Assembly (NCBI GenBank): GCA_016193045.1
Contig: JACPSW010000006.1
Span: forward strand, 1,116-65,115
Length of the DNA stretch: 64,000 nucleotides
Direction: 5' to 3'
Origin: Candidatus Rokuibacteriota bacterium
GTDB taxonomy: Bacteria > Methylomirabilota > Methylomirabilia > Rokubacteriales > CSP1-6
Both the position numbers and the translations under genes were made by a program. A model generated the notes under the pieces. The model saw only the letters and a list, made by a program, of their open reading frames with translations. It did not search any database and was not told where the DNA came from. Shown in pieces: positions 4,814 through 39,310 of the stretch (position 1 is the first letter of the stretch; each line of letters begins with the position of its first letter).

Positions 4814-5959
4814 ATGCGAACCTCTCGATCTGCCGTCCTCGCGCTGGCGGCGCTCCTCCTCGGCGGCGCGCTCTGGGCCGGCGGAGCCCTGGGCCAGGCC
4901 CCGCGCGTCCCCGCCCTCGGCCCGCTGCCGGCCGTGCCCAGCCCGCCCGACAACCCGACGACCGCGGCCAAGGTCGAACTGGGAAAGCTCCTCTTCTGGG
5001 ACACACGGCTCTCCGGCGACGTCTCGACCTCCTGCGCGACCTGCCACGATCCGAAGCTGGACTGGGGGGACGGGGGCGCCCTCTCCCGCGGCTATCCCGG
5101 CACCGAGCACTGGCGGAACTCCCAGACGGTCCTGAACGCGGCCTACTTCTCGAAGCTCTTCTGGGGCGGCGAAGTCACGAGCCTCGAGTCTCAGGCCAGC
5201 GCTGCGGCTACCGGCAACGTGGCGGGGAACGGCGATCCCATCATGATGGAGGAGCGCCTGCGCCAGGTCCCGGAGTACGTCAGGCGCTTCAAGGAGGTCT
5301 TCGGCGTCGAGCGGCCCACGATCGGGATAGCCTGGATGGCCATCGCCGCCTTCGAGCGGACCCTGGTGTCGAAGGCCGAGCAGGTCCCCTTCGACCGCTA
5401 CGCCCGGGGCGACCAGTCGGCCCTCGCGGCCGGGGCCAGGCGGGGGCTCGCCCTCTTCCAGGGAAAGGCCGGGTGCGTCCAGTGCCACAACGGGCCGCTC
5501 CTGTCCGACGAGAACTACCACAACCTCGGCGTCCCGAGAAACCCGGCCTTCGAGAACACCCCGCTGCGCCAGATCACGCTGCGCTACCAGCACGTGATCC
5601 GCGGCGTCCCCGAGAAGCTCTACCGGAGCGCCGACCGCGACCTGGGGCTCTACTACACGACCAAGCAGGAGGCGGACAAGGGGAAGTTCAGGACCCCGAG
5701 CCTCCGCGAGCTGAAGTACACAGCCCCCTACATGCACAGTGGCGTCTTCGGCGCCCTGGAGGAGGTCGTCGAGTTCTACAACCGCGGCGGGGACGAGAAT
5801 CTCAACAAGAGCCCGCTCATGCGCCCCCTCGGGCTGTCGGAGCAGGAGAAAAAGGACCTTCTCGCGTTTCTCCTGTCGCTCTCGAGCGACCAGCCGCTGA
5901 TCGTCGAGCCGCCCGACCTTCCGGACTACGCACCCATGAAAGTGGAGGCCAGACCATGA
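4814..5959 (+). CDS. Second di-heme cytochrome c peroxidase (CCP/MauG family), secreted paralog
   Basis: Internal ATG at 4814 (MRTSRSAVLALAALLLGG signal peptide) preceded by gaggag. Motifs CATCHDPKLDWGDGG and CVQCHNGP. The longer ORF 3890..5959 is an upstream read-through artefact. Confidence 0.9.
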   Translation: MRTSRSAVLALAALLLGGALWAGGALGQAPRVPALGPLPAVPSPPDNPTTAAKVELGKLLFWDTRLSGDVSTSCATCHDPKLDWGDGGALSRGYPGTEHWRNSQTVLNAAYFSKLFWGGEVTSLESQASAAATGNVAGNGDPIMMEERLRQVPEYVRRFKEVFGVERPTIGIAWMAIAAFERTLVSKAEQVPFDRYARGDQSALAAGARRGLALFQGKAGCVQCHNGPLLSDENYHNLGVPRNPAFENTPLRQITLRYQHVIRGVPEKLYRSADRDLGLYYTTKQEADKGKFRTPSLRELKYTAPYMHSGVFGALEEVVEFYNRGGDENLNKSPLMRPLGLSEQEKKDLLAFLLSLSSDQPLIVEPPDLPDYAPMKVEARP

Positions 5960-6511: not shown

Positions 6512-9181
6512 ATGGCAAAGGCGGTCTCCCACTTCTATCTTCCCGAGGACAGGGTCCCACTCCCCCCGCCGGACGCCAAGGTCTCGACCACGGCGTGCGA
6601 CTACTGCATCGTGGCGTGCGGCTACATGGTCTACACCTGGCCGCTGGGCAAAGAGGGCGGGCCCAAGGCGTCCCAGAACGCCCTCAAGGTAAACTTCCCC
6701 GCCGCGATCAACAGCGGGAAGTGGATCAGCCCCAACATGCACAACATCGTCCACGTCGAGGGCACCCCCCATCACCTCGTCGTGGTCCCTGACGGCGACG
6801 CCAGGGTCGTCAACGTCGGTGGCAACCACTCCATCCGCGGCGGAGTGCTCGCCCAGAAGTGCTTCAACCCCAACAAGCCCTCCCAGGAGCGGCTGCTTCA
6901 CCCGATGATGCGCGTCCGGGGCACGCTCCAGGCGATCTCCTGGGACGCGGCCTTCGAGGTCCTGGCGGGGGTCTCCCGCCACGTGCTCGACCGCTACGGC
7001 GAGAGCGCCTGGGCGATGAAGACGTACTCCTACCAGTACTTCGAGAACACCTACGCGATCTCCAAGCTGGCCTTTTGGGCCATCCAGACGCCCGCCTACG
7101 CCCCTCACGACAAGCCCGGCCCCGGGCCCGACACCCCCGGGCTGGACTGGGCCGGAATCGACGCCTTCAGCGCCTCCTACGAGGACTGGGGGGAGGCGGA
7201 CGTGATCTACTTCGCCGGGGTGGACCCCTGGGAGACCAAGTCGGTCCTCTTCACGACCTGGATCATGAACGGCAAGAACCCGGACAAGAAGCTCATCTTC
7301 GCCCTGCCCCGGAAAACGACGGGGGTGGCGTACGGCGAGGGCAAGGGCGGGCTTTTCCTGCCCGTGATCCCGGGGACGGATGTCGTCCTCCAGCTCGCGA
7401 TCAGCCGGGTGATTCTTGAAAATGGGTGGGAGGACAAGGCGTTCATCGAGAAGTGGGTGTCGAACGCCTGGGAGATCGACACCGGCATGGGGCGCGGCCC
7501 GCGCAACACGCCGTCAGAGTGGTTCACCACGTGGGGCCGCTACGGCGTCGGCTTCGCCGACTACAAGAAGTGGATCCTCGGCTACAAGTACGCCGAGCTC
7601 CCGACCGCCGAGCGGATCACCGGTGTGCCGGCGGACTCCATCAAGCGAGCGGCCGAGTTGCTGGCCAAGCCCCGCCCCGACGGCTCCCGCCCCAAGACCT
7701 CGTTCATGCTGGAGAAGGGGATCTACTGGTGCAACAACCTCGGCAACACGACCTCCTTCGCCGCCCTCGGCCTGCTCTGCGGGGCGGGGAACCGTCCCGG
7801 CCGCGTTATCGCGCGGGGCGGCGGCCACCAGCGCGGCTGGATGGGCGGCAGCGGCTACCCGCGGGGGATCTCCCCAGAGAAGTTCCCGGGGCGGCGGAAG
7901 AAGGAGATCGACCTGGACCGCTGGGTGGTGGATGGCCACGTGCGCTTCGCCTGGGTCATCGGCACGACCTGGCTCCAGGCCATGGCGGCCTCCCAGGAGC
8001 TGATGGACGTCTTCGAGAAGCTCACCCGGGGAAACCCGAACCAGATCAGAAGCTTCGACCCCAAATCCGCCATCGAGACGCTCAAGAGGCGCGCGGACTC
8101 GGGCGGCCTGGTCGTGGTGGACCAGGACATCTACCCCGTGGACCCCATCGGCACCCAGTTCGCCGACCTCGTCCTGCCCGCCGCGACCTGGGGTGAGGAG
8201 GACTTCACCCGCTGCAACGGCGAGCGCCGCCTGCGGCTCTACTCGAAGTTCTACGACGCGCCCGGGGAGGCCAGGCCCGACTGGTGGATCATCGCCGGCT
8301 TCGCCCGGAAGATGGGGTTCAAGGGGTTCGACTGGAAGGACTCCAACGAGGTCTTCGAGGAGTCGGCCCGCTTCGGCCGCGGCGGCGTCCTCAACTATCA
8401 CCCCCTCGTCGTGAAGGCCAAGCGCGAGGGCAAGCGCGCCCACGATCTCCTGCGCCAGTACGGGACCGAGGGGATCCAGACGCCGATCCGGATGGTCGGC
8501 GGAGCCCTCGTGGGGACCAAGCGCCTGCACGATTCGACGCTCCAGCTCGGGCCCCCGGAGGGCGTCACGGTCCATCCCAAGTGGCTCACCTCGTTCGACA
8601 CCCACACGGGCAAGGCCATCCTCCTCCGGAGCTACTGGGAGGACTTCCAGGACTTCCACGAGGCGGTGAGCCCCGTGGGAGACGAGCTCTGGGTGACCAA
8701 CGGCCGGATCAACGAGCTCTGGCAGTCGAACTTCGACGACCTCCGCCGCCCCTACATCATGCAGCGCTGGCCCTATCAATTTCTAGAAATCCACCCGGAG
8801 GACGCCAAGGCCCGCGGGATCGAGTCCGGAGACTTGGTGGCCATCGAGAACGACAACGTCCTGGTTCAGACCGGGGGGTATCTCGGCGTGGACGACAACG
8901 AGCTCTCCTTCGCCGAGCTCCGGAAGGCCGGCCACATCCAGGCCACCACCGGGAGCTTCAACGCGGTGGCGATGGTGACCGACGCGGTCCGGAAGGGCGT
9001 GACGTTCGCCTACTTCGGCTTCTCCGGCAACCCCGCGAACTCCGTAGTCCCGCGGGTCCCCGATCCCGTGACCAACCGCTACCGCTTCAAGCTCGGCAAG
9101 GGCCGCATCACCAAGATCGGCGAGTCGCCCTACAAGCGCTCCTTCACCTCCATGAGCTTCGCGCCGCGGCCGATCGCGTAG
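6512..9181 (+). CDS. Molybdopterin (bis-MGD) oxidoreductase large subunit, arsenite-oxidase (AioA) / iodate-reductase (IdrA) clade
   Basis: N-terminal TTACDYCIVACGYMVYTW matches the AioA-type C-X2-C-X3-C [3Fe-4S] motif (cf. CHFCIVGCGYHVY). 889 aa. RBS gaggagg 9 nt upstream of ATG 6512. No signal peptide, consistent with hitchhiking on the Rieske TAT signal. Confidence 0.88.
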   Translation: MAKAVSHFYLPEDRVPLPPPDAKVSTTACDYCIVACGYMVYTWPLGKEGGPKASQNALKVNFPAAINSGKWISPNMHNIVHVEGTPHHLVVVPDGDARVVNVGGNHSIRGGVLAQKCFNPNKPSQERLLHPMMRVRGTLQAISWDAAFEVLAGVSRHVLDRYGESAWAMKTYSYQYFENTYAISKLAFWAIQTPAYAPHDKPGPGPDTPGLDWAGIDAFSASYEDWGEADVIYFAGVDPWETKSVLFTTWIMNGKNPDKKLIFALPRKTTGVAYGEGKGGLFLPVIPGTDVVLQLAISRVILENGWEDKAFIEKWVSNAWEIDTGMGRGPRNTPSEWFTTWGRYGVGFADYKKWILGYKYAELPTAERITGVPADSIKRAAELLAKPRPDGSRPKTSFMLEKGIYWCNNLGNTTSFAALGLLCGAGNRPGRVIARGGGHQRGWMGGSGYPRGISPEKFPGRRKKEIDLDRWVVDGHVRFAWVIGTTWLQAMAASQELMDVFEKLTRGNPNQIRSFDPKSAIETLKRRADSGGLVVVDQDIYPVDPIGTQFADLVLPAATWGEEDFTRCNGERRLRLYSKFYDAPGEARPDWWIIAGFARKMGFKGFDWKDSNEVFEESARFGRGGVLNYHPLVVKAKREGKRAHDLLRQYGTEGIQTPIRMVGGALVGTKRLHDSTLQLGPPEGVTVHPKWLTSFDTHTGKAILLRSYWEDFQDFHEAVSPVGDELWVTNGRINELWQSNFDDLRRPYIMQRWPYQFLEIHPEDAKARGIESGDLVAIENDNVLVQTGGYLGVDDNELSFAELRKAGHIQATTGSFNAVAMVTDAVRKGVTFAYFGFSGNPANSVVPRVPDPVTNRYRFKLGKGRITKIGESPYKRSFTSMSFAPRPIA

Positions 9182-10191
9182 CGAGGGGGGTGTGCTTTGC
9201 AGCGCGAAAATATCTCATCGGGTGTGAGCAATGAAATCGCGGTCTTCGGGCCCAGCACGTCGATACGTAAGATTCTGTCCGGATTGCGCAAATCGACCTT
9301 TCTGTCGATGCTCGCGGCGAGATAGTCAATGATCTCCTTCGTATGATATTGGCGCCAGCGCCGTTTTTCCACCTCCATGGCCCAGGTGTCATCCTGATCG
9401 ATCAGATCCCTTATGTGCGTCTCGATCACCGACTTCATCGCCTGAAGCTCCGTTTCGCACCAGAAATCGACAGGGACCCATTTCACCGCGAATCGGAAGA
9501 TTGGCCCCCCTTCGAATAATTCCCTGCATCGCCTGATGACGTCTCGGTTATTCAAAGTGGTGCGGACGATGGCGATGCCTGGGACATTCGTCTTTTCGAT
9601 CTGGGGATGTGGATCCCCAAACTGCCGGAGAATGCGCGTTATTTCATGGCGTGCGGGATGGAACTGCCTCCACGGGTAGGAAACGAGGAGTTCATTCGTG
9701 CCCATGGTTGGCATGAGCGCATCCGAGTCCAGGCGTTGGGCTCTTTCTGAACCGCCGCAGATTCCTTTCAAGGGCACGTACCGCACCTCACAAATGATCT
9801 GTCTGACGGTGCCAGTCTCGGTCTTTTCAGCGAGAACGAGATTCTGAACATCGTCTTCAATCATCGGGACGATGAGCCGTCCACCCGTTCGCAACTGATC
9901 GATCAGCGGCGGGGGTATCTTTCGGCAGGCCGCCGTCACGGCGATTCTGTCATAGGGGCTCATCTCCGGACACCCCAGCCCCCCATCCCCCTGGATCAGG
10001 ACGATGTCGCGGTAGCCGGCCCGTTCGAGATTTTCTTTGCCGAACGCAAAAGTCAATGGATCGATTTCGACGGACACGACGAGACCCTCGGGGCCGACGA
10101 CTTCTCGCGCCAGGGCGGTCCCATAGCCCGAGCCCAGGCCGATCTCGAGAAAGCGATGGCCTTGATCCAAGCCGAGCGGCTCGTAAAACAA
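9130..10191 (-). CDS. Protein-L-isoaspartate O-methyltransferase-like domain fused to an unrecognised roughly 200-aa C-terminal domain; N-terminus truncated, possible pseudogene
   Basis: PIMT motifs (FLEIGLGSGYGTA ... VRYVPLKG) begin at residue 14. The only start is TTG at 10191. An in-frame TGA lies 12 codons upstream, and PIMT-like sequence (EATISCPHSY, cf. GQTISQPY) continues beyond it. Lower GC than the core. Convergent 52-nt overlap with the molybdoenzyme gene. Confidence 0.55.
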   Translation of the reverse strand: MFYEPLGLDQGHRFLEIGLGSGYGTALAREVVGPEGLVVSVEIDPLTFAFGKENLERAGYRDIVLIQGDGGLGCPEMSPYDRIAVTAACRKIPPPLIDQLRTGGRLIVPMIEDDVQNLVLAEKTETGTVRQIICEVRYVPLKGICGGSERAQRLDSDALMPTMGTNELLVSYPWRQFHPARHEITRILRQFGDPHPQIEKTNVPGIAIVRTTLNNRDVIRRCRELFEGGPIFRFAVKWVPVDFWCETELQAMKSVIETHIRDLIDQDDTWAMEVEKRRWRQYHTKEIIDYLAASIDRKVDLRNPDRILRIDVLGPKTAISLLTPDEIFSRCKAHPPRYAIGRGAKLMEVKERL

Positions 10192-10887
10192 GGGATAACT
10201 GTGGGGACAGGAGATGGTCGCCTCTCACTGGACTTTCGCGGCTCGCTCCTTTTCCAATTCCTCCCGGCTCTTGGTGGGCGCCTTCGGCGGTGGGATGATC
10301 CAGCCGTGCATTCTTGCCTCGCTCAAGCGCTGGACAGGCGGGTGGGGGGTCCCAATAAGGAGCGGGAAACGTGAGGATCGGCCCAAAAAAAAAATGCCCT
10401 GGAAGCTATCTGAAGCGCTTCCTCCTTACCTTCCTTTTGCCCTTCGAGATTAGTGTCAACCTCGACTGACCGTCGGCTGGTTCGGTTTCCGCAGCTCCGG
10501 AACTTCAACTTCCAGGGTACCCACAATCTAAACCCCGCCTCACCCGCTGTCAATGAGCCGTTCACTCTAATCAAAATGCATGGGAAGAACAAGACTATTC
10601 ACGCCGACTGCGGCGAGCACCTGCCGGGAAGTCTGTGGACGAGCGGCCGGGCCCGCCCCATGCGAGCCGATCTCGAAGCCTAGGGTGGGGGCAGACGATG
10701 TCCCAGTCGCCCCGTCAGATGGGGCGGTGCCACCCCATCAACTCCTTGAAGACGGCTATTGAACTCTATGGTCCGTAACGAAATCAAGGTATTAGAGGGA
10801 CGCCCGCTCTGGCACTGCGGTTGCTCAGTCAACTGGGTTGGCAAGTCCGAAGCAAACAAGACAGGCTCGCCAAGTGGGGGTGACTCG

Positions 10888-11316
10888 ATGAATATCGCAA
10901 GCATCCTGGCGACTAAGGGCGGCCAAGTCATGACGATCCGTCCCGAGCAAACAGTCAGGGAGGCCGTCGCGTCACTCGTCAAACATAATATTGGTGCGCT
11001 CATCGTCGTGAACGATGTCGACAAACCCATCGGGATTATCACCGAGCGCCACATTGTGCGTGAAGTGGCGAGAAACGAGCAGATCTTCACGCAAACCATC
11101 CGTGAGGTTATGACACAGGACTTGCTCACCGGAACGCCGCAGGATGATCTGATGTCGGTCGCCCATGTCATGACCGAACGGCGAATTCGCCATTTGCCGG
11201 TCATGGACAAAGGGAAGCTCATCGGCATCGTGTCCATTGGGGACGTGGTCAAGGCCCAGCGGGACACGTACCGGGGTGAGGTCGAGACCTTGCAGACGCA
11301 GATTCTCGGGAGTTGA
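10888..11316 (+). CDS. CBS-domain pair protein
   Basis: Two CBS motifs (IGALIVVNDVDKPIGIITERHIVREV; IRHLPVMDKGKLIGIVSIGDVV). Internal ATG 10888 follows ggggg. Confidence 0.8.
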   Translation: MNIASILATKGGQVMTIRPEQTVREAVASLVKHNIGALIVVNDVDKPIGIITERHIVREVARNEQIFTQTIREVMTQDLLTGTPQDDLMSVAHVMTERRIRHLPVMDKGKLIGIVSIGDVVKAQRDTYRGEVETLQTQILGS

Positions 11317-11493
11317 CGCGTCCGCGGCAAACGCTCTGAGCCCGCTGGTTCTCCTCCGAGGGAGCTGGATCATGACGAAGACGGACCTGGTGGGCCGAAC
11401 TGGCGAAGGTATCCAATCTGACGAAGAGGGAAAGCGTGTCCAGTGGACGATGACCCGATACGAGTGAGAATGAGTCCCCGAAGGATTCGGACA

Positions 11494-12105
11494 ATGGCAA
11501 GGAGGGATCCACCTGCCGGACTCGGACACAAGTGCCTCATGTTGCTCCCTATACTCCTGGCCCTGTGGGGCCTGGCCGGCTGCGCCACCGCCTATGTCCG
11601 GGGCGAGACCGCCCTTCGTCAAGAGCGCTACGACGAGGCGGCGGGCTATTTCATCGAAGCCCTCGCCACGGACCCCGGACGGATCGACGCTCGAACCGGG
11701 CTCGGCATCACCCGGTACAAGCAGGGGAAGCTCGACGAAGCGGAAGACGCCCTCCGACAGGTCATCACCCAAGTGCCCGGCCGCTCGGAGGCACGGCTCT
11801 ACCTGGGCCTCACATATCTGCAAAAGGGGGAGAACAGCTCGGCCGAGGAGCAATTGACTGCGGTTCTGGCTCTCAAACCCCACCGCCGTATCGCGGCCCA
11901 GATCGAACGGGCCCTCAGGCTGATTCGATCCGGCCCCCTCTCGGACGACACAAGAATGTTCGTCGCGGCGAGTCTCGAAGACGAGGCGGAGTGGGAATGT
12001 GAGGTGCGTGACGCGGAGCGCCAGCGATGCGTTTATGTGGAGCCGGTGTGGCCTGTGTATTGGCACTCCTACTGGTACCCGTATTGGTACCGTTATCGCT
12101 TCTGA
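11494..12105 (+). CDS. TPR-repeat lipoprotein with aromatic-rich C-terminal tail
   Basis: Lipobox LLALWGLAGC. TPR-like repeats. Unusual tail VWPVYWHSYWYPYWYRYRF. Start placed at M18 of the ORF. Confidence 0.55.
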   Translation: MARRDPPAGLGHKCLMLLPILLALWGLAGCATAYVRGETALRQERYDEAAGYFIEALATDPGRIDARTGLGITRYKQGKLDEAEDALRQVITQVPGRSEARLYLGLTYLQKGENSSAEEQLTAVLALKPHRRIAAQIERALRLIRSGPLSDDTRMFVAASLEDEAEWECEVRDAERQRCVYVEPVWPVYWHSYWYPYWYRYRF

Positions 12106-12275
12106 GCTGGAACTGGAGGGTGCGAGGTGTCAATCTTCGGACGAACGATTCGGAGAACTCGAGCGGAGGCGGGATCCATTTGCTGCCGGACCGCCACAAG
12201 CGGCGCCGCCTGATCACTCAGCTCCCCGGCACCCTCAAGGCGAGGCTCCTGGACGAGCCGCCTGGGGCACTCCTC

Positions 12276-12458
12276 ATGGATCTGGACGCATTCCTGCAGC
12301 ATGTCGCAGCCGGGCTCGGCACGCATACGTCGGGAGGCAAACGCGCCGTGCGCATCGTGTACCGCGCGCTCCGCGAAGCGGTGTCCCCAGGCGAGCTGGC
12401 CAAAGCCGAGGCACACCTCCCAAAGGAGGTCGCCGGCTTTCTCGAGCGTGCCGCATGA
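12276..12458 (+). CDS. Short DUF2267-like protein (N-terminal half only)
   Basis: MDLDAFLQHVAAGLG...AVRIVYRALREAVSPGELAKAEAHLPKEVAGFLE resembles the first half of DUF2267. The ORF ends after about 60 aa. Confidence 0.3.
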   Translation: MDLDAFLQHVAAGLGTHTSGGKRAVRIVYRALREAVSPGELAKAEAHLPKEVAGFLERAA

Positions 12459-12504
12459 GCCTCGACCATGACTGACTTCTCGCCGGCCGCCTGATCCCTC
12501 CAGT

Positions 12505-12545
12505 GGCAAAGTTGAGCGCGAGGAGGGCAAAGTTTAGGGCAAAGT
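12505..12545 (+). promoter_or_regulatory. Three direct repeats of GGCAAAGT upstream of the tRNA-Asp promoter
   Basis: Copies at 12505-12512, 12526-12533 and 12538-12545, just upstream of the -35 element. UP/Fis-like arrangement typical of stable-RNA promoters. Confidence 0.4.
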
Positions 12546-12559
12546 GGGGGGGTTCGCCA

Positions 12560-12588
12560 TTGACTCGGCCCGCGTAACCATGTAAATT
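12560..12588 (+). promoter_or_regulatory. Sigma70-type promoter of the tRNA-Asp gene
   Basis: TTGACT (12560-12565), 17-nt spacer, TAAATT (12583-12588). The tRNA starts 8 nt downstream. Confidence 0.6.
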
Positions 12589-12596
12589 CTCAGCGC

Positions 12597-12641
12597 GGGG
12601 TCGTGGTGCAGCCTGGTTAGCACACTGGACTGTCAATCCGA
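12597..12641 (+). tRNA. tRNA-Asp(GTC) 5' fragment (acceptor 5' strand, D-arm, anticodon arm; no T-arm or 3' acceptor)
   Basis: GGGGTCG-TG-GTGC-AGCCTGGTTA-GCAC-A-CTGGA-CTGTCAA-TCCGA with canonical U8, A14, G18G19, A21, U33 and R37. Sequence after position 43 is not tRNA-like. Confidence 0.7.
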
Positions 12642-13331
12642 TCCGCAGTATGAGCCCCGTTGGTAAGTGCGTAACTTGCCAGCGGGTTTTTCTTTCTCTC
12701 GTTGGCTAGGGTCGGGTAGTTTCGGGTGGTTTCTAGGTGCTGACGGGCATAATGGCGGGCATAACGCCAGGGGGCCGAGCCCCGCACGCAGGTCGAGCCC
12801 CGGCACGATTGGAGCCCGTAGGTCGGGGGGGAGGAGGACAAGGACGCAAGCGCTCAACCAGGTCCCTTCGATTGCTCGCCTCAGTAACCGATGGCATTGG
12901 GAACAGAAGGGGCCTTTGATGAACTCATCGAGACTGCCGCGAGAGGGGTTCTCGACGGTACGGAAGGCAGATAGGAAGTGTGGCATGATCTCCCAATCGA
13001 GATCGAAGTGAGAAAAGGGGTAGAAGTCGGGCGGCTTCGCCGTTCGGGTGGGGTCAGGTGACGGTGGTGGAGTAGACGTGGCGACTGGGCGACGAGTCAA
13101 CTGATGTCGGTGGATGATCAGGGCGAGGACCAAGACAAGGGCCACCGAAAGCAGCAGCCACGCTGGTGTTGGAAGAGGGGTCCTCAGGTACGGACCGATT
13201 ACGCGGACGTAGGCGACCACAACTGCGAACAGTATAGCCAGTAACGCAAGAATCCCGGTGGCGATGAGATTCGCTGTCACCTGATTGAAGATGTTCCTGA
13301 GCCAATTGCGGATGCTTCGCCATGACCACAT
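12633..13331 (-). CDS. Hypothetical membrane protein (two N-terminal TM helices, Cys-containing C-terminal region)
   Basis: 232-aa ORF. Its C-terminal 40-50 codons run through repeat copy 1 and the tRNA fragment, so the native C-terminus is probably replaced or non-coding. Confidence 0.4.
   Translation of the reverse strand: MWSWRSIRNWLRNIFNQVTANLIATGILALLAILFAVVVAYVRVIGPYLRTPLPTPAWLLLSVALVLVLALIIHRHQLTRRPVATSTPPPSPDPTRTAKPPDFYPFSHFDLDWEIMPHFLSAFRTVENPSRGSLDEFIKGPFCSQCHRLLRRAIEGTWLSACVLVLLPPDLRAPIVPGLDLRAGLGPLALCPPLCPSAPRNHPKLPDPSQREKEKPAGKLRTYQRGSYCGSD
12662..12691 (+). terminator. Hairpin (ggtaag..cttgcc) plus T-run directly after the truncated tRNA-Asp
   Basis: Stem-loop followed by agcgggttttt. 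The T-run is the first base of repeat copy 1. Confidence 0.5.
12681..12768 (+). repeat. Copy 1 of a roughly 90-bp repeat family (core TTTTTCTTTCTCTCGTTGGCTAGG ... CGGGCATAATGGCGGGCATAACGCC)
   Basis: 21/23 identity in the core and about 65% over the next 55 nt to the copies at 31088..31172 (+) and 39130..39225 (-). All three begin at a terminator T-run. Confidence 0.75.
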
Positions 13332-13860: not shown

Positions 13861-13937
13861 CCAGGGGGGCGGGCGCCTGAGGGCAGCGACGCTGGATGGT
13901 CCAGCGCGCCGTCCGCCCCGAGCCAGAAGGGGGCGCG

Positions 13938-15084
13938 ATGGCGGCCGAGCGACTATCCATGCGGCAGATCCGCGAGGTCCTGCGACAGAAGTGGACCCTG
14001 GGCCGGAGCCACCGGGAGGTGGCCGAGGGCCTGGGGATCGGCCTGGGGACTGTCTCCAGCGTCGACCGACGGGCCCGGGCGGCCGGGCTCGACTGGCCTC
14101 AGGTCGAGGCGGTCAGCGAGGCGGCGCTCGACGCGCGCCTGTACGGGCCGCCGACCCCGCCCACGCATCACCGCCCCGTCCCCGACTGCGCGGCCCTGCA
14201 TGCCGAGCGGCGCAAGCCCGGCGTCACTCTCGAACTGCTCCACCTCGAGTATCTCGAGCAGCATCCTGACGGCTACCGCTACACCCAGTTCTGCGAGGTC
14301 TACCGGCGCTGGCTTCAGCGGCGGGGCCTGTCGATGCGCCAGGTCCCACGCCGGCGACAAGTGCTTCGTGGACTACGCCGGCAAGAAACCCACCATCGTC
14401 GACCCGACGACGGGCGAGGTGATCCCGGTCGAGCTCTTTGTCGCCGCCCTGGGCGCGTCGAACTACACCTACGCCGAGGCGACCCGCACCCAGCAGGTCC
14501 CCGACTGGCTCGCGAGCCATCAGCGCGCCTTCCAGTTCTTCGGCGGGGTCACCAACGCCGTGGTCTGTGACCAGCTCAAGAGTGGCGTCGTGGTCCCGTG
14601 CCGCTACGAGCCCGGACTGCAGCGCACCTACGAGGAGTTCGCCCAGCACTACGGCACCGTGGTGCTCCCGGCCCGGCCGGCGCGCCCTCGGGACAAGGCC
14701 AAGACGGAAGTCGCCGTGCAGATCGTGGAGCGGTGGATCCTCGCTCGTCTCCGCCACGAGACCTTCTTCTCGCTGGCGGCGCTCAACGCCCGCATTGCCG
14801 AGCTCCTCGCGGATCTGAATGGCCGCCCCATGCGCCTGTACCGCGCGAGCCGGCGCGAGCTCTTCGCGCGCCTGGACCAGCCTGCGCTCCGCCCGCTCCC
14901 CGCCGAGCCCTTCGTGTACGGCGAGTGGAAGGTGGGCGCGCGGGTCAACATCGATTATCACATCGAGCTGCACGGGCATTACTACTCCGTCCCCTACGCC
15001 CTCATCCACGAGCACGTCGATGTGCGCCTGACGGCGACGACCGTCGAGTGTCAACGGGAATCCAAAAGTCCCCACTTGCGGTAA
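13938..15084 (+). pseudogene. istA: IS21-family transposase IstA, frameshifted near 14345 and C-terminally truncated
   Basis: [15 protein letters not shown]... then the second frame ...[42 protein letters not shown]...[22 protein letters not shown]. The frames join if one C is removed from caggtcccacgcc (expected [15 protein letters not shown]). Confidence 0.85.
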
Positions 15085-15107
15085 TTGAAAACTCCCCACC
15101 CCCGGGT

Positions 15108-15300
15108 TCACTCCGTGGCCTCGGCGGGGCGGACGAGGCCGGCCTTGAGCTTGTCCTTGAGCCGGTAGGAATTGCCCCGGATGTTGAGGGTGATGGCATG
15201 GTGGAGGATCCGGTCCAGGATCGCCGTGGCGATGACGCGGTCCCCGAAGACCTCCCCCCAGCTGCCGAAGCTCTGGTTGCTCGTGAGGATCATGGGACCC
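15108..15300 (-). pseudogene. istB: IS21-family IstB C-terminal remnant
   Basis: Only the last roughly 60 aa are IstB-like: GPMILTSNQSFGSWGEVFGDRVIATAILDRILHHAITLNIRGNSYRLKDKLKAG. The upstream part of the ORF is noise. Confidence 0.7.
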
Positions 15301-15546
15301 CGTAGGTGGGTACCGAATTTACTGGACAGGACCGAGCGCGCCGCCCACCCGGTGGATGAAGTGCTACCTCGCGCCCTGTGCGGCAGTGGGTCCTGAGCCT
15401 GCCCCACCGCCTCCGCTACCTCCTCGCCTGGAATCCACCCTCTGCCGCGCCGTCTTGGGCGTCTACGCTCCCGAAGACCCGGGGTGCCCGAATTCGGGCG
15501 CCCCGGGTGCGTTCGCACACATTCCAGCCTTGGTCTAGCAGTCCGT

Positions 15547-16746
15547 CTAAACTCCCCAGTTGCACTGTCCGGAGGGCCTGAGAGGATCCGCATCCTTCCT
15601 CCAGTGAGGTGCCTTGTAGTCGATCGTGAACAGTTCCGGCCGGAGGTAATCGTAGTGGTCGTAGAGCCAGGGCAGCTGAGGCCGGTGGAAATCCGGGTGA
15701 TTCGCGAACTCTCTCTCCACCGCGAGCTTCCAGAACGGCGACGAGCTCTGAGGGGAGACGACATCGTGGTGCAGTGGCGCGAAGATTTTCGGCTCGACGG
15801 CGTTGATGTATAGGGCAATGTCCCGCACGCCGTTGGTGGCAAACCCGAGGCTGACGATGGACCCGAAGTGGATGTCGGTGAGTGGCAGCGCGCGCATTAT
15901 GTCGTACAGGCTCAGCGGCCCTGCCTGCTCCTTCAAGCCCACCGTATCGTGCCACACGAATGTGAAACTGTTGTCGTGATTCACCCGGAACTGATAGAAC
16001 AGGCTCAGGGCACCTGCGGCTCCGTCCCCGGACGAGCTGACGCCGTCGCTCGGGCCGGGGCCCGGCGGGAAGAGCACGGGGTCCCGTGGGTCAGGGATCG
16101 GCTCGACCGGGTTGGGTGGGTTTGTCGGGTCCGGGGCTGCGACTCCGGAATGCACGTGCTTGAACACCGTGATACACGCGTCGGGCTTCAGCACCTCCAG
16201 CGCATTCACCTCGGCGCCAGGCGCGGAACTCCGCGACACCGCCTCGACACAGTTGACCGTGGCCGTGGGACCAAGGACGGCCTGAGCGTCCCCACGCGCC
16301 ATGTCACAGTGCTCGGGAGCCCCCACAATCGTCGCCCCGGTGACGGCGGCGATGTACCCGGCCAACTCCGCATGGTCGAAGTGCCCATGCCCGATAAAGA
16401 TCGCCTCGGGCTTGAGCGCGACCAGCTCGTTCAGGGTCGTGGGTGTGCGGCCAGGTGTGTCCTGTCGGTTGTTGATGAAGGCGTCCAGGAGGACCACGCG
16501 CCCCTTCAGTGCAACCGCTAAGCTCGTGTTGCTGAACCACGAGAAGATGACGCGATCCTTGCGTACATTCCCCGTCACCGGATCGACATTCTCAACCCCG
16601 AAGTAGTGCTGACGGGCGGCTACCCGAGATGGAGGCGCCGGTGGCCCCGGGTCGAACAGAGAGTCTAGGAGGGTCTGGGCAGGCACGCAGAGCGGGAGGA
16701 AGAGCACGCTCAGCACGGCGGCTAGAGAAATGACAGCCCTTTTCAT
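15547..16746 (-). CDS. Secreted metallo-beta-lactamase-fold hydrolase
   Basis: Signal peptide MKRAVISLAAVLSVLFLPLCVPAQT. MBL motif IGHGHFDH, with further His/Asp ligands downstream. Confidence 0.8.
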   Translation of the reverse strand: MKRAVISLAAVLSVLFLPLCVPAQTLLDSLFDPGPPAPPSRVAARQHYFGVENVDPVTGNVRKDRVIFSWFSNTSLAVALKGRVVLLDAFINNRQDTPGRTPTTLNELVALKPEAIFIGHGHFDHAELAGYIAAVTGATIVGAPEHCDMARGDAQAVLGPTATVNCVEAVSRSSAPGAEVNALEVLKPDACITVFKHVHSGVAAPDPTNPPNPVEPIPDPRDPVLFPPGPGPSDGVSSSGDGAAGALSLFYQFRVNHDNSFTFVWHDTVGLKEQAGPLSLYDIMRALPLTDIHFGSIVSLGFATNGVRDIALYINAVEPKIFAPLHHDVVSPQSSSPFWKLAVEREFANHPDFHRPQLPWLYDHYDYLRPELFTIDYKAPHWRKDADPLRPSGQCNWGV

Positions 16747-18075: not shown

Positions 18076-20391
18076 CTAGTGTGCGAGCGGATCGGGGCGC
18101 AGCTGGAACTTGACCATATATCCGATTTCGGTCTCGATGTGCCAGACGGCGACCGTACCGTAGTCCGCCCACAAGCCCCGGCCTTTCCACCCCGCGTTCG
18201 GATCATCGATTCTCCCATCGAGCCCGCGATGGTAGAACCCGAGCGGATATGGCACGCGCGCTACCAAGAACTCCTTGGTCGCCGGGTCCAACACGAGGAG
18301 TGCGTCTGACGTACTCCCGGTCGCGATCGGGACATTCTCTCCCAGCCCGAGCGTGTTATGCTGGTCGACCCAGTTATAGTAGTGGAAGTCAGCACTTCCG
18401 GGATCGGTCACGCCCTTCATCTGCGGCCCAGGGGTTGGATACAGGGTCCACCCTTCAGGGCACTGCCGCCCTGTACCCCAAGCGCGCGTACATATGCTGC
18501 GGTCGAAACTGGCGAGGTGTCCGCTGCCGCCGAGCGCGGTCCAGATCAGGCCGTTCTTGTCCACGTCGATCCCTCTCGGTCCGTGGCCAGTCACGGTTCC
18601 CGGGGGGAGGTTCGGGTCCGCGACCGAGGGAGGTTCGTAGGCTTCATGTCGGCCGGTCAACGGGTCATACCGTTCGATTCGCCCGGGAAAACTCGAAACT
18701 GTTGGCCCTTCCGTGTCCAGACCCCCACTCGTCAATGGCAGGACACCGGTCCAGATACTCCCATCAGCGGGGTTGGGGATGATCCCATAGTGAAAGCCGA
18801 CCAATGGAGTATCAGGTACGCCGTCACCGTTAGAATCCACGACAACATAGGACCAGCCTTGGGCGCGCCCAACGCTACTGGGATCGTTCGGGTTGAACTT
18901 GCTCGGGTCAAACCACCCGATGACGAGTAAGTCCCCGCTCAGCCAAAGAATGCCCTTCTTGTCAAATTGCAGATGGTGCGTACCGTAGCAGGTGTCGATC
19001 AGCACAAATTCTTTGTTCCCCGGGTCATAGTATCCGAGCTGCCGCGTGCTCAAGAGTGCCGGCGCTGGGGCGGTGGGATCGGGCAAGGGCGTCTGGTTTG
19101 TGAGGCAAAAGTCCGGCACGTCGTTTGCCTCTCGGATCTTCACAGTGATCCAGACCTTACCGTCGGCATCGATCATGGGGTTATGCGGGTTCATGGGGTT
19201 TGTCCAGATGATCTCGGTGCCCCACTTGGCTGACGGGAAACCCGCGGACATGGTCTGGGGGAAAAACGTGCTAGTATTGCCGACCGGATTCGGGATCTTG
19301 ATCATGCTCGACGTGTGGGCCACGGGGTCGGTGATGATGAGGCGGTCATTTCCGAATTCAACACCGTACACGGGCCCGTTTGCGTTGACCGTAGGGTTTC
19401 GTTTGTCCGTCACAACCTCGTCGTGCGCATACGACACCTCATCGCCCCATGCCCACATCGTGATCACGACGTTTCGCTCCGGTCCTTGCGGCCTCGGTGG
19501 CTGCGTGGGCACCTCGCCCGCGGCCATTCGTTCCGCCCAATCTCCGAACGTGGCGAGGCCGGCTTCTCTGCCGAAGGCGCTCATCGAGCCGCTCATCTGC
19601 GCGCCACGCTGGCCCGAACGGACGTGACGATCAAAGGCGGCAGCACCGGACTCATGGTGGCCGGGATCGTAAATGCCAGCGATGTGATCATGGAGCCGGG
19701 TCGCATGGTTGCCCAGCTGGTGGCAGAGCTGGCAACCGAGCTTCATCTGACTGACCCACTGGGCCTGATGCTCCATGCTCGTAGAAATCCCGTTCCCGCC
19801 TTGGGATGTCGGGCCCGTTCCCGGGAACTGGCTCTTGTCCGGAACTTGGAATATGGAGACCCAATAATTCTCGGGGTAGACCTGTGCTGCCTCGGCAGGG
19901 CAGCGGGCTGGCTCGGCCACGAGCGTCACGAGCTGACCCGTCGACACCTGCACCCGGGCTGAATCGCGGAGCCCGTAGCCCCGCACCCACACGTCATACA
20001 CGGCGGTCGGCAGGTCCGGCAGGACAAACCGTCCCTCGCTGTCTGTCACTGCAATCTTGATATACCTGGTGGGCAGACGACCACGGTGGAGCGCGCTCTC
20101 AGGGACTGTGATGATGTCGGCTTCCGCGATCACCCATACGCCAGCCACATCAACGCCCGGAGGTACGATGACTTTTCCGCCGATACCATCGGAATCAATA
20201 GCAACCTTTGGGGGTTGAAGCTGGGCCCCCTTAGGCCTGAATGGAGTAGGGCTGATACCGCCGCACGGGTCGAGCGTAGTTCTGATGTGCTCCCCGACAT
20301 GGGCGACCGCGGCGGAAGGACCACCAAAGAAGATGGCGAAACCAAAGAAAAGGGCAAGAGCGGATAGCACTATCGCTTGTGGACTTTTCAT
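18076..20391 (-). CDS. Secreted multidomain protein: CarboxypepD_reg-like domain, single c-type heme site (CQLCH), Vgb/NHL-like beta-propeller
   Basis: Signal peptide after the second ATG (ggaggag RBS). IAVTDSEGRFVLPDLPTAVYDVWVRGYG is a CarboxypepD_reg motif. CQLCHQLGNH. Repeated D-x-x-G-x-(I/L)-W blades (DADGKVWITV, DKKGILWLSGD, PADGSIWTGV, DKNGLIWTAL). Confidence 0.55.
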   Translation of the reverse strand: MKSPQAIVLSALALFFGFAIFFGGPSAAVAHVGEHIRTTLDPCGGISPTPFRPKGAQLQPPKVAIDSDGIGGKVIVPPGVDVAGVWVIAEADIITVPESALHRGRLPTRYIKIAVTDSEGRFVLPDLPTAVYDVWVRGYGLRDSARVQVSTGQLVTLVAEPARCPAEAAQVYPENYWVSIFQVPDKSQFPGTGPTSQGGNGISTSMEHQAQWVSQMKLGCQLCHQLGNHATRLHDHIAGIYDPGHHESGAAAFDRHVRSGQRGAQMSGSMSAFGREAGLATFGDWAERMAAGEVPTQPPRPQGPERNVVITMWAWGDEVSYAHDEVVTDKRNPTVNANGPVYGVEFGNDRLIITDPVAHTSSMIKIPNPVGNTSTFFPQTMSAGFPSAKWGTEIIWTNPMNPHNPMIDADGKVWITVKIREANDVPDFCLTNQTPLPDPTAPAPALLSTRQLGYYDPGNKEFVLIDTCYGTHHLQFDKKGILWLSGDLLVIGWFDPSKFNPNDPSSVGRAQGWSYVVVDSNGDGVPDTPLVGFHYGIIPNPADGSIWTGVLPLTSGGLDTEGPTVSSFPGRIERYDPLTGRHEAYEPPSVADPNLPPGTVTGHGPRGIDVDKNGLIWTALGGSGHLASFDRSICTRAWGTGRQCPEGWTLYPTPGPQMKGVTDPGSADFHYYNWVDQHNTLGLGENVPIATGSTSDALLVLDPATKEFLVARVPYPLGFYHRGLDGRIDDPNAGWKGRGLWADYGTVAVWHIETEIGYMVKFQLRPDPLAH

Positions 20392-31021: not shown

Positions 31022-31066
31022 CCCCGTGCGGGGGTCTCATAAGCCCGGAGCGAAACCCGCCCCCAT

Positions 31067-31097
31067 CGGGAAGTCGCGGATTTCCCGAGCGGTTTTT
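31067..31097 (+). terminator. Hairpin cgggaa..ttcccg plus T-run after the hisD-like gene
   Basis: cgggaagtcgcggatttcccg, then agcggttttt. The T-run is the first bases of repeat copy 2. Confidence 0.55.
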
Positions 31098-31172
31098 CAT
31101 TTGCTCGTTGGCTGGCGGGGGCGGGTTTTGGGCAGGTTTCGGGCCGTCGCGGGCACATTTCCGGGGCACGCC
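31088..31172 (+). repeat. Copy 2 of the roughly 90-bp repeat family (core TTTTTCATTTGCTCGTTGGCTGG ... CGGGCACATTTCCGGGGCACGCC)
   Basis: See copy 1. It sits at the left edge of the 31.0-33.3 kb low-GC insertion. Confidence 0.75.
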
Positions 31173-31403
31173 AACTGGAGCACGATCAGATGTTGTACGC
31201 GAATCCTTCGCGCTCCTCGACGCCAGAGAGCGCGGCCTGCCTCAAGAAGTAGCGTGTCGCGTCGAGCGTAAGGCGGCGCTACTTCGCATGGTGAACTGGT
31301 GTGGTCACTCCTAGGTGTTTTTGCACCGGGGCCTGAGCTGGGTGGCAACTCGCGGCTCGTTCCGGTGTGAAGCTGGCGGGCTAGGACTCCACAGAAGGCG
31401 CGG

Positions 31404-39129: not shown

Positions 39130-39225
39130 GATCGAGCCCAACGATATGCCCGAAAACATGCCCGCGCCGGTCTCGAACACAGCCAAACCAGCCCCTCTCC
39201 AGCCAGTGAGCAAAAGAAAAACCCC
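39130..39225 (-). repeat. Copy 3 of the roughly 90-bp repeat family (minus orientation: GGTTTTTCTTTTGCTCACTGGCTGG ... CGGGCATGTTTTCGGGCAT)
   Basis: See copy 1. It begins at the T-run of the 39222..39252 hairpin and runs toward the GNAT gene. Confidence 0.75.
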
Positions 39226-39252
39226 TCGGTAAATCATCAAGTTGCCGAGGGG
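39215..39252 (-). terminator. Hairpin cccctcgg..ccgagggg plus T-run (minus strand) after the truncated tRNA-Arg
   Basis: Minus-strand read: ccgaggggtttttcttttgc. Perfect 8-bp stem. Confidence 0.6.
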
Positions 39253-39270
39253 TTCTCTCTCCCGGTGAAG

Positions 39271-39310
39271 ATTAGAAGTCCGACGCTCTATCCAGCTGAG
39301 CTACAGGCGC
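39271..39310 (-). tRNA. tRNA-Arg(TCT) 5' fragment (positions 1 to about 40); no T-arm or 3' acceptor
   Basis: Minus-strand read GCGCCTG-TA-GCTC-AGCTGGATA-GAGC-G-TCGGA-CTTCTAA-TC, then divergent sequence (TTCACCGGGAGAG) and the terminator hairpin. Confidence 0.7.

Follow-up and report, generated by a model that had tools for sequence, protein, structure and literature searches.

Truncated tRNA genes in a Rokubacterial contig as probable left junctions of integrative elements that replace the promoter and 5' half of the gene

The window analysed here, a stretch of 64,000 nucleotides from a contig of Candidatus Rokuibacteriota, raises the question of why pieces of tRNA genes, broken at the anticodon arm, should be followed in three places by the same short repeat. 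These three repeats are very probably the left junctions (attL = B-O-P') of integrative elements mobilised by one lineage of tyrosine integrases, which is found in soil metagenomes and in assemblies, some proteins of which bear Methylomirabilota (Rokubacteria) names. The polarity of such elements, in which the promoter and the tRNA 5' half are replaced, is already known, yet rare in bacteria. The first-pass annotation had seen in the repeats the conserved end of an integrative family acting at the tRNA anticodon arm, leaving behind 5' fragments as the mirror image of the usual 3' fragment, and the related loci agree on both points. The separation it drew from tyrosine-integrase islands is not sustained, given that an integrase (Pfam PF00589) sits at the other end of the element. 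The features of the window on which the argument depends are listed here, with loci outside the window designated by L and a number.

12508..12545, + strand: decayed 3' tail of the integrase gene of an earlier element, with three copies of GGCAAAGT, the P-arm repeat
12560..12588, + strand: element-type sigma-70 promoter TTGACTCGGCCCGCGTAACCATGTAAATT of the tRNA-Asp 5' half, from a promoter scan
12597..12639, + strand: tRNA-Asp(GTC) positions 1-43 (acceptor 5' strand, D arm, anticodon stem-loop and TCC), broken after 12639
12640..12772, + strand: copy 1, element left end (P' arm), with a 16-nt linker, terminator hairpin 12656-12686, T-run and 23-nt core 12687-12709, and tandem GGGCATA words 12745-12763
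31031..31046, + strand: tRNA-Met(CAT) anticodon-arm remnant GGGGTCTCATAAGCCC, 16 nt, the same as in the tRNA-Met of L023 and L028
31047..31180, + strand: copy 2, left end, with a linker, hairpin 31066-31088, T-run and core 31093-31115, and words GGGCAC ... GGGGCAC at 31151-31169
39270..39310, - strand: tRNA-Arg(TCT) positions 1-41 with its native upstream region, broken after CTTCTAATC
39137..39269, - strand: copy 3, left end, with a linker, hairpin 39252-39222, T-run and core 39221-39199, and tandem GGGCAT words 39163-39145

The core TTTTTCWTTYKCTCRYTGGCTRG occurs exactly three times in the window (12687+, 31093+ and 39199-), where 100 shuffles give a chance expectation of none, and the three copies with a shared 23-nt core stand as originally described. 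A profile built from 13 family members, i.e., the 3 window copies and 10 loci from metagenomes and assemblies, returns the same three places with E values of 1e-32 to 1e-34 and no further full-length match in the window. The 13 copies can be aligned from the anticodon loop through the GGGCAY words, and in all 13 the unit is preceded by a loop of 7 nt that reads YTNNNAA or YTNNNAT. The repeat had been thought to begin at the T-run, with the hairpin outside its conserved part, whereas the similarity continues to the left across the hairpin and reaches the nucleotide that follows the anticodon loop; the hairpin lies within the homologous unit, its pairing kept by compensatory changes.

This hairpin comprises 12 pairs, is 94% paired and has changes on both sides in 5 of the pairs, a level of pairing and covariation that was reached in 0 of 500 shuffles. 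[quoted passage not shown] The hairpin and U-run fold in all three predicted window transcripts; for copies 1 and 2, the terminator is also found by a consensus scan. Going by position and conservation, the terminator may shield the element from transcription that starts at the orphaned promoter, the 23-nt core is a putative protein-binding site, and the GGGCAY words are putative arm-type integrase sites. The core was also considered as a promoter, and neither a sigma-70 nor a sigma-54 pattern fits by eye; it does not recur elsewhere in the integrase-bearing loci. Its three matches in species-representative genomes (Oscillospiraceae, Planctomycetia and Gammaproteobacteria) have no extended similarity and are attributed to chance, and a scan of viral contigs gave no match. 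Copies 2 and 3 are inverted and face each other. As for the claim that every copy edges lower-GC DNA, the step is clear at copy 2 (0.71 to 0.60) and mild at copy 3, but copy 1 lies within DNA that is already low in GC.

The tRNA pieces were next to two of the copies in the first description, and both are indeed truncated: at the tRNA-Asp and tRNA-Arg halves no whole tRNA is found by ARAGORN or at the Rfam gathering score (best tRNA-model score 20.1 bits against a threshold of 29), and the window contains no T-loop motif besides those of its tRNA-Pro and tRNA-Leu. A tRNA-Asp that naturally lacks the T arm was considered from a weak Rfam match (12597-12658, 20.1 bits, with partial acceptor pairing) and rejected, since nothing comparable exists at copy 3 and the continuation of the true gene is visible in L032. 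The pairing of a fragment with two copies holds for Asp and Arg, but falls short at copy 2, which has a remnant too: the 16 nt of a tRNA-Met anticodon arm. As expected of a tRNA island, the junctions lie inside the anticodon stem-loop, at position 41 of tRNA-Arg by comparison with L031 and at position 43 of tRNA-Asp by comparison with L032.

Copy 3 is a primary insertion whose target was the native tRNA-Arg(TCT). The 5' part of this gene at 39310-39270 (-) matches positions 1-41 of the intact L031 orthologue without a difference, and the synteny of the two loci, at 86% over 1775 nt, breaks off precisely at 39270; the corresponding L031 position is 5760, in the intact tRNA-Arg, and the break lies some 50 nt ahead of the T-run. 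L031 contains tRNA-Pro, a 100-aa gene, a PF0610-like gene and the intact tRNA-Arg(TCT); it is the unoccupied site in a relative, with the same upstream genes as the window and no left-end unit. An empty site of this kind, which the first-pass annotation had proposed as a means of defining the boundary, is thus available and places it at tRNA position 41. The 115-aa gene upstream of the tRNA-Arg, tried as a gene of the element, is a conserved host PF0610-like regulator instead. A third locus completes the comparison: the window runs from the native upstream region through the 5' half into P', and L034 from the integrase gene through the element promoter and a whole tRNA into the same downstream flank as L031. 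The L034 and L031 tRNA-Arg genes differ at three places, all of them 5' of position 28, and the crossover therefore lies at positions 28-41.

At copy 1, the target is a tRNA-Asp whose promoter and 5' half came from an earlier, now decayed element. The tRNA-Asp 5' part (12597-12639) matches positions 1-43 of the intact tRNA-Asp of L032 at 100%, up to CTGTCAATCC, and the TTGACT-17-TAAATT promoter reported upstream of it is recovered by the consensus scan at 12560-12588. This promoter is homologous to those located between integrase and tRNA in L023, L028 and L040, and the family promoter pattern has no other match in the window. Upstream, the last two copies of GGCAAAGT in 12508..12545 are spaced 12 nt apart and read G-K-V-stop-G-K-V, for which the C-terminus of integrase P0278 (...LAGKVSGKV) is the comparison, and the module lines up, in register, with those of integrase tail, promoter and tRNA start in L023, L028, L029, L032, L034 and L040 (E 4e-16). 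When a profile of the integrase tail and promoter was used to look for right-end modules in the window, none was found except this one upstream of tRNA-Asp. By eye, the stretches 38283-38317 (-) and 33010-33036 (+) also look like the family promoter, yet neither of them scores.

Copy 2 is a junction that has decayed further. Its remnant (31031-31046) equals the matching 16 nt of the intact tRNA-Met anticodon arm in L023 and L028 and falls in register with the other anticodon loops in the family alignment; the acceptor and D arms are absent, and the remnant begins 9 nt past the hisD stop codon. The junction is also present on an independent Logan contig, L004. That only 16 nt of tRNA remain to the left of this copy counts against the main reading.

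Across the 64 kb there is no family integrase, no intact tRNA-Asp, tRNA-Arg(TCT) or tRNA-Met, and no right end (integrase and intact tRNA) for any of the three copies. All three are therefore orphan scars, with right ends that have been lost or separated from them. The 8 kb between copies 2 and 3 is host-like (GC 0.70, histidine kinases, ABC binding protein), and an inversion between these copies could explain the absent right ends.

About a dozen distinct copies of the unit are present in soil metagenomes and assemblies, each beside a different tRNA anticodon loop, including Asp-GTC, Met-CAT, Arg-TCT, Arg-CCT, Val-CAC, Val-TAC and others. The two ends of an element are seen together in L023, where a 41-nt tRNA-Met 5' half and a left-end unit are followed, approximately 2.2 kb on, by a C-terminal integrase remnant (PF00589), a promoter and an intact tRNA-Met. 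The 41-nt tRNA 5' half is repeated from end to end at 100% and the promoter region at 91%. All five distinct family integrases examined have an intact tRNA directly downstream of their gene, in the same orientation, and the integrase-to-tRNA pairs are those of L023 and L028 (Met), L032 (Val-TAC), L034-39 (Arg-TCT) and L040 (Arg-CCG). The integrase stop codon falls at or within the tRNA start, the reading frames ending at tRNA nucleotides 1-10; in L034, for example, the tRNA begins at 11137, and the integrase gene runs on to 11146. The PF00589 matches of L032, L034 and L040 have E values of 3e-11 to 2.5e-15, and the catalytic motifs of tyrosine recombinases (R..HxxR..H..Y) are visible in the L032 protein as GWRT, HDFRRT, TGHKT and DRYH. 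In L034-39 an HTH_17 gene of the excisionase type is located just upstream of the integrase gene. The family numbers 3779 at E <= 1e-40, and L029 suggests that it may likewise replace the 5' end at lpxK.

No both-ended locus besides L023, the integrase of which is truncated, was found among the sampled loci; L005, L006 and L016 have no right end, despite 8-12 kb to the right of the left end, and the full-length integrases of L034-L040 have no left end within 10 kb upstream. No active element with an intact integrase gene and both junctions was found among the loci examined. L005 and L011, considered as one element in two sites, are a single locus differing by a deletion of roughly 150 nt.

The same word is found in both arms. 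L023 has CGGGCACAtTTTCGGGCACAGTG in the P' arm and CGGGCACAaTTTCGGGCACAGTG in the integrase tail, and the word of copy 3, CGGGCATGTTTTCGGGCATATC, recurs as the 3' end of the full-length L032 integrase gene. The corresponding protein tail, G-X-x-x-G-X, where X is T, I, H, K or R, is present in 96 of the 120 best-scoring full-length or nearly full-length integrase hits, and this variation in X indicates that the repeat is kept at the DNA level.

A candidate attP can be proposed from this arrangement. It would start with the 3' end of the integrase gene, the last codons of which form a tandem GGGCAN word 12 nt apart, followed about 20 nt past the end of the gene by a sigma-70 promoter, and then by a duplicated tRNA 5' part reaching as far as the anticodon loop, the presumed region of crossover. 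A linker of approximately 20 nt and the intrinsic terminator would come next, and the module would end with the conserved TTTTTCTTTnnCTCGTTGGCTGG core and the tandem GGGCAY word again. Recombination with the anticodon stem-loop of a chromosomal tRNA would place the integrase gene, promoter and 5' half of the element ahead of the host 3' half, rebuilding an intact tRNA at the right end, while the left end would receive the host promoter and 5' half, the transcript of which would be halted by the terminator of the element. A second copy of each tRNA, or a function for the halves, had been thought necessary; neither is needed, because the promoter and 5' half brought in with the element restore an intact tRNA at its opposite end, as in L023 and at the tRNA-Arg(TCT) of L034.

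Other origins have to be weighed against site-specific integration with tRNA replacement. In the tRNA-dependent lysogeny documented in mycobacteriophages (PMC10865867), attP and attB share approximately 10 bp, the tRNA is not rebuilt, and a separate whole tRNA of the same kind is carried. The window by itself, with three broken tRNA genes and none rebuilt, would suit such disruptive integration, which is nonetheless very unlikely here: the repeat of L023 spans the whole 41-nt 5' half and the promoter, its intact tRNA-Met is the flank junction itself, with no extra 3' fragment, and both the 3' half and the downstream flank of the integrase-linked tRNA-Arg(TCT) are those of the host. A similarly small probability is given to the tRNA halves and terminators being genes for small RNAs of about 95 nt, kept for regulation or as decoys. 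The promoter of copy 1 has a good consensus, the upstream region of copy 3 is native and conserved in L031, the foldable terminator is kept in all three copies, and orphan left ends outnumber complete elements among the loci sampled. The tRNA part, however, varies by copy, with 16 nt left in copy 2 and a loop in L005, L012 and L015, and the half itself is therefore not conserved; a by-product of integration accounts for everything.

If the copies were insertion elements homing to intrinsic terminators, in the manner of group IIC introns and certain IS, the hairpins would belong to the host and the tRNA halves would be incidental. A hairpin and T-run do precede each copy, and the three window stems differ in sequence; terminators had also been named as a possible target in the first-pass annotation. 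Against this, the hairpin and T-run belong to the element, covary within the family and keep a fixed distance from the anticodon loop and core, the hairpin being the same in most members and otherwise changed in a compensatory way; the homology with the empty site stops at the anticodon loop, well ahead of the T-run; Rfam returns no match to a group II intron or other RNA family; and no transposase lies beside the copies, bar unrelated IS21 debris, the adjacent cargo being an unknown ORF, an SDH protease and a GNAT. Terminator homing is accordingly most improbable. The local duplication of a single intergenic block, without mobile DNA, deserves still less credence and is already contradicted: the three copies do fall in a span of 27 kb, where two face each other in inverted orientation, but the mean column identity of their blocks is only 68%, their flanks are unrelated, and they are not each other's closest relatives, each having closer ones in other samples or genomes, beside other tRNAs.

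A broader version of the integration reading joins several propositions, namely that a huge integrase lineage of an uncultured phylum is specialised in seizing tRNA promoters, that its tail codons double as arm sites, and that a tRNA-half RNA of about 95 nt is kept for function. With each insertion a tRNA would then come under the control of a promoter that lies within the integrase gene's own 3' end, and the orphaned promoter and 5' half would give rise to the RNA, for example as a decoy or regulator where the islands carry defence cargo. Taken jointly, these propositions are improbable.

As left junctions, the three odd "half tRNA genes" become ordinary by-products of site-specific integration, making split tRNAs, tRNA loss and terminator-homing elements unnecessary. 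They lead to a large and so far undescribed lineage of integrases, whose members in soil metagenomes number in the thousands and whose 5'-replacing polarity is rare. Island finders built for 3' fragments and for an integrase gene downstream of the tRNA may suit this arrangement less. Integrase tail, promoter, 5' half, terminator and repeat together make up a compact and clearly delimited candidate attP, which could serve to mine integrases of differing tRNA specificity.

Among known systems, a displaced 5' tDNA fragment is recorded in 159 of the 3919 islands of Islander, the other 3760 of the 3919 replacing the 3' part (PMC4383910), and a review of archaeal recombinases describes the 5'-fragment situation as "seldomly encountered in bacteria" (PMC8371274). 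These 5'-fragment islands are alike in polarity, with a 5' fragment at one end and, at the other, a rebuilt tRNA that is expressed from element DNA. The dusA-specific integrases (PMC4482086), compared by target and outcome alone, also integrate in the 5' end of a conserved gene and supply a replacement 5' end, the target being protein-coding rather than a tRNA.

The pTN3-like integrases of Thermococcales (Cossu et al. 2017, PMC5495485; PMC8371274) use the tRNA 5' half as attB, and the recombinant tRNA is expressed from element DNA beside the integrase gene. They are archaeal and "suicidal" in the manner of SSV, with attP inside the integrase reading frame, so that integration splits the gene. 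In the present family, by contrast, the integrase stop codon is at the tRNA start and the crossover is downstream of it, at positions 28-41, and the integrase gene therefore stays whole.

A close likeness in mechanism is with the tRNA islands and prophages that use the anticodon loop (Williams 2002; Islander, PMC4383910), which share a PF00589 recombinase, a crossover in the anticodon stem-loop, a partial tRNA copy that rebuilds the gene, a displaced fragment at the far end, tandem arrays, and defence and accessory cargo. The usual islands keep the host promoter and replace the 3' part, with the integrase gene downstream of the rebuilt tRNA, whereas this family replaces the 5' part and the promoter, carries the integrase gene directly upstream, and has a conserved terminator after the displaced 5' fragment.

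The 23-nt core TTTTTCWTTYKCTCRYTGGCTRG is present at three places in the window, 12687 (+), 31093 (+) and 39199 (-), against a chance expectation of none in shuffled sequence, in line with the three copies with a near-identical core reported by the first-pass annotation. The repeat had been taken to begin at the T-run of a terminator; however, once the left flanks are included in the alignment, the similarity among the three copies runs on through the hairpin to the nucleotide after an anticodon loop, which gives a repeat unit of about 130 nt.

Copies of the unit in the window, and its successive parts
12640..12772 (+), copy 1
31047..31180 (+), copy 2
39137..39269 (-), copy 3
Part 1, linker of about 20 nt
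Part 2, hairpin of 12 bp
Part 3, T-run and conserved core
Part 4, about 35 nt of weaker similarity
Part 5, tandem GGGCAY word

The claimed promoter TTGACT-17-TAAATT (12560-12588) was recovered by consensus scan, as were the terminators by consensus scans and folding. ARAGORN found only tRNA-Pro, tRNA-Leu and one tmRNA in the window, with no intact tRNA-Asp, tRNA-Arg(TCT) or tRNA-Met; Rfam at gathering thresholds gave the same outcome, and the sole tRNA match of a permissive Rfam scan (12597-12658) reached 20.1 bits, under the 29-bit threshold. Given that no whole tRNA lies at the half-genes and that a search of the window yielded no T-loop motifs beyond those of the intact tRNA-Pro and tRNA-Leu, the two 5' tRNA halves were read correctly by hand, and this reading is confirmed by identity to intact genes in related loci from metagenome contigs or assemblies (L-handles): 12597-12639 equals positions 1-43 of the tRNA-Asp(GTC) of L032, and 39310-39270 (-) equals positions 1-41 of the tRNA-Arg(TCT) of L031. 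Only these two copies had been said to follow a tRNA remnant, but copy 2 also adjoins an anticodon loop, given that GGGGTCTCATAAGCCC (31031-31046) is identical to the matching 16 nt of the anticodon arm in the intact tRNA-Met of L023 and L028. These 16 nt are all that is left of the gene; the hisD stop codon is 9 nt to the left of the copy, whose junction was found again on an independent Logan contig. At 33037-33092 (+), a tRNA-Thr(CGT)-like gene is represented by a degenerate 3' fragment without its 5' half, beginning at the anticodon loop (TTCGTAA TCAGC AGGGC GTGAG TTGGAGT CCCAC CGCCGGC). The low-GC stretch separates this fragment from copy 2, where the stretch starts, and there is no match between the fragment and that of tRNA-Met.

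When metagenome contigs were scanned with a relaxed version of the core, 23 loci came up, of which 18 are true, mutually redundant relatives; the NCBI assembly loci L029 and L030 hold one more copy. The alignment comprises 13 distinct copies, three from the window and ten from other loci, and in every copy with a readable left flank the unit begins directly after a 7-nt anticodon-type loop.

Loops preceding the unit
CTGTCAA, tRNA-Asp, copy 1
CTCATAA, tRNA-Met, copy 2 and L023
CTTCTAA, tRNA-Arg-TCT, copy 3 and L005
TTCCTAA, tRNA-Arg-CCT, L014
CTCACAT, tRNA-Val-CAC, L021, L012 and L016
CTTACAA, tRNA-Val-TAC, L027
CTTCAAA, no tRNA named, L015

Complete 5' halves are found at copies 1 and 3, L014, L021 and L023, the other copies keeping the loop or the arm only. 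The hairpin is kept in place and shape (12 pairs, 94% of cells paired, five pairs changed on both sides), and it is part of the element and selected for its structure, because none of 500 shuffles reached the observed pairing or covariation and every slid register collapses.

The empty site is provided by L031, from a relative whose PF0610-like protein is 86% identical to that of the window; its gene order is tRNA-Pro, a 100-aa gene, the PF0610-like gene and an intact tRNA-Arg(TCT). Synteny between L031 and the window (86% over 1775 nt at the nucleotide level) ends exactly at 39270, which is tRNA position 41, and the three-way alignment with L034 gives an attL/attB/attR picture. The window and L031 share the native upstream DNA and tRNA positions 1-41, after which the window enters the left-end unit; in L034, an integrase tail and the element promoter replace the native upstream DNA, and are followed by the whole tRNA and by a downstream flank shared with L031. 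Given that the synteny ends at position 41 and that the three differences between the tRNA of L034 and its native counterpart are all 5' of position 28, the exchange occurred between positions 28 and 41, within the anticodon stem-loop, the classical core for tyrosine recombinases (PMC8371274). Copy 3 is a primary insertion in the native tRNA-Arg(TCT), with the upstream genes and promoter region of the host still in place, as in L031. Downstream of this tRNA, L031 (5797-5900) and L034 (11214-11320) each have short tandem words in two sets, CGTAGTTyCCGCGTAGTTTC and GGAGACAGAACGGAGACAG, which resemble the arm sites of a different, conventional element 3' of the same gene.

The other end is seen in L023, where the parts follow one another on one strand.

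Order of features in L023
1, right-end-like module
2, first 41 nt of tRNA-Met
3, left-end unit
4, 2.2 kb of DNA
5, C-terminal part of a tyrosine integrase (PF00589)
6, promoter TTGACT...TAGATT
7, intact tRNA-Met

The two copies of the 41 nt are 100% identical, and those of the promoter region 91%. As a query, this integrase remnant has more than 1100 relatives, and the full-length family integrase of L032 (377 aa) matches 3779 proteins at E <= 1e-40, several bearing Methylomirabilota or Rokubacteria names. In all genomic contexts retrieved, an intact tRNA lies 3' of the integrase gene (int) on the same strand, and the int stop codon falls at the tRNA start or inside its first ten nucleotides. 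The tRNA promoter is located within the last codons of int.

tRNA genes following the integrase
L028, tRNA-Met
L032, tRNA-Val(TAC), then tRNA-Asp
L034-L039 (six contigs with one integrase), tRNA-Arg(TCT)
L040, tRNA-Arg(CCG)

An HTH_17 gene of excisionase type precedes int in L034-L039, and L040 has a Prim-Pol gene. The 120 best of the more than 1100 C-terminus matches (P0001-P0120) are all just 75-161 aa long, even on contigs of 50-270 kb; truncated integrase tails before tRNA genes seem to be retained far oftener than whole genes, which would fit selection on the promoter inside them. The independent remnants of L023 (~1072, -) and L029 (~10223, +) start at the same codons, F-(K/R)-K-A-W, each fused to unrelated upstream sequence, and the L005 integrase fragment terminates at that point; the shared breakpoint is either a coincidence or an internal recombination hot spot. 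L028 (ENA ERZ25039541, contig_2282) has a 36-nt 3' fragment of tRNA-Met (20259-20294), 9.7 kb downstream from the intact tRNA-Met linked to the integrase, that begins at the same post-anticodon position; one tRNA gene is thus used both by a 5'-replacing element and by a conventional island of the 3'-fragment type.

The two ends also share repeated words. The left-end unit terminates in CGGGCAY, 5-6 nt and CGGGCAY, and this word, in the same orientation, makes up the last conserved codons of int: L023 has CGGGCACATTTTCGGGCACAGTG in the P' arm and CGGGCACAATTTCGGGCACAGTG in int, and the variant of copy 3, CGGGCATGTTTTCGGGCATATC, is that of the L032 integrase tail. The tail G-X-x-x-G-X occurs in 96 of the 120 best-scoring matches to the full-length L032 integrase, with X being T (70), I (16), H (8), K (1) or R (1). 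Because this residue varies while the tandem persists, what is conserved is a DNA repeat with a 12-nt period, which the protein tail merely reads. The words are putative arm-type integrase sites on both attP arms.

Right ends from other elements align, in register, with the module before copy 1 (E 4e-16), which holds GGCAAAGT words (reading G-K-V-stop-G-K-V), the only family-type promoter in the window and the tRNA-Asp 5' half. Given this right-end module, the half was supplied by an earlier element with a decayed integrase, and a second element with GGGCAT words later integrated into the rebuilt tRNA-Asp gene, a tandem arrangement also found in L021 and L023. Low-GC DNA (0.58-0.62) starts about 3.5 kb left of copy 1. 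The genes of this region (9000-12640) include those for a PCMT-THUMP methyltransferase, DUF2267, a CBS protein and a TPR protein, and the region may represent cargo of the earlier element, from whose decayed right end the tRNA-Asp promoter comes; no left end of that element was found. The genes adjoining the three copies are accessory genes that differ in kind.

Genes adjoining the copies
Copy 1, 232-aa ORF without assigned function and Xre-type antitoxin
Copy 2, SDH-family protease
Copy 3, GNAT acetyltransferase

Defence-type genes are present in L006 (RelA/SpoT-TPR protein, SNase, methylase with S domain, DUF4917/AbiH-like protein), and the Qat-type genes (KAP NTPase, QatB, QueC, TatD) and TIR gene near the L032 integrase, sitting beyond the host PF0610-like gene, are possible cargo only. 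L029 (NCBI GCA_040961595.1, JBFOND010000144.1; regions 4940-5083 and 12001-12140) has a family left end abutting the stop codon of a kdtA-like gene (GTCAGTATAA / T) and a right-end module (integrase tail and promoter) ahead of lpxK, whose early codons, CTGGC-GTATAAT-GCCAG, resemble an anticodon arm; here the 5'-replacement strategy seems to have been applied to a protein-coding gene.

As the window has no family integrase and no intact tRNA for Asp, Arg(TCT) or Met, all three copies are orphan left ends. Orphan ends are common among the sampled loci: a right end is absent within 8-12 kb in L005, L006 and L016, and a left end within 10 kb of the full-length integrases. Possible causes are long tandem arrays, deletion, if other tRNA copies exist, and rearrangement, which is hinted at because copies 2 and 3 stand face to face and broken IS21 pieces lie 1.2 kb right of copy 1. 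This debris (13896-15842; istA pieces (+) with rve and Mu-transpos_C_2, IstB-like C-terminus (-)) may mark a rearrangement that parted copy 1 from its right end.

The repeat had been read as the conserved end of small integrative or insertion elements targeting tRNA genes just past the anticodon arm, which is essentially right, with the corrections given here. Very probably, a tyrosine recombinase integrates at the anticodon stem-loop of a tRNA gene, and the element provides the promoter and 5' half. The strong host promoter would then point into the element, where the hairpin and T-run are presumed to halt its transcript within ~95 nt. Terminators had also been proposed as the target, but homing to them is contradicted by the covarying hairpin within the unit and by the empty-site homology, which ends at the anticodon loop. 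The long repeat argues against disruptive integration with compensation by a carried tRNA (PMC10865867), which is contradicted also because the junction is the intact tRNA itself. A local duplication is contradicted by the wider family outside the window; a function of the tRNA halves themselves is improbable and not needed. Integration at the anticodon stem-loop thus gives a clean explanation for a strange-looking feature and points to an unexplored integrase lineage, without a new principle.

Our literature search found no account of such elements in Rokubacteria or Methylomirabilota, and no prior description of a promoter inside the integrase tail, a built-in terminator or arm words read as protein. 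The family is large and of an already known kind, the tRNA islands, which usually replace the 3' part of the gene (PMC4383910). In Islander, the fragment is a 3' one in 3760 islands and a 5' one in 159, and attP is anticodon-centred in 2083 (PMC4383910); pTN3-like integrases use the 5' half, with the tRNA expressed from the integrase promoter, a use described in a review of archaeal recombinases as "seldomly encountered in bacteria" (PMC8371274); the 5'-replacing polarity is thus known but rare. Unlike the pTN3 or SSV type, however, the present family leaves int unsplit upon integration, and for this reason belongs to neither.
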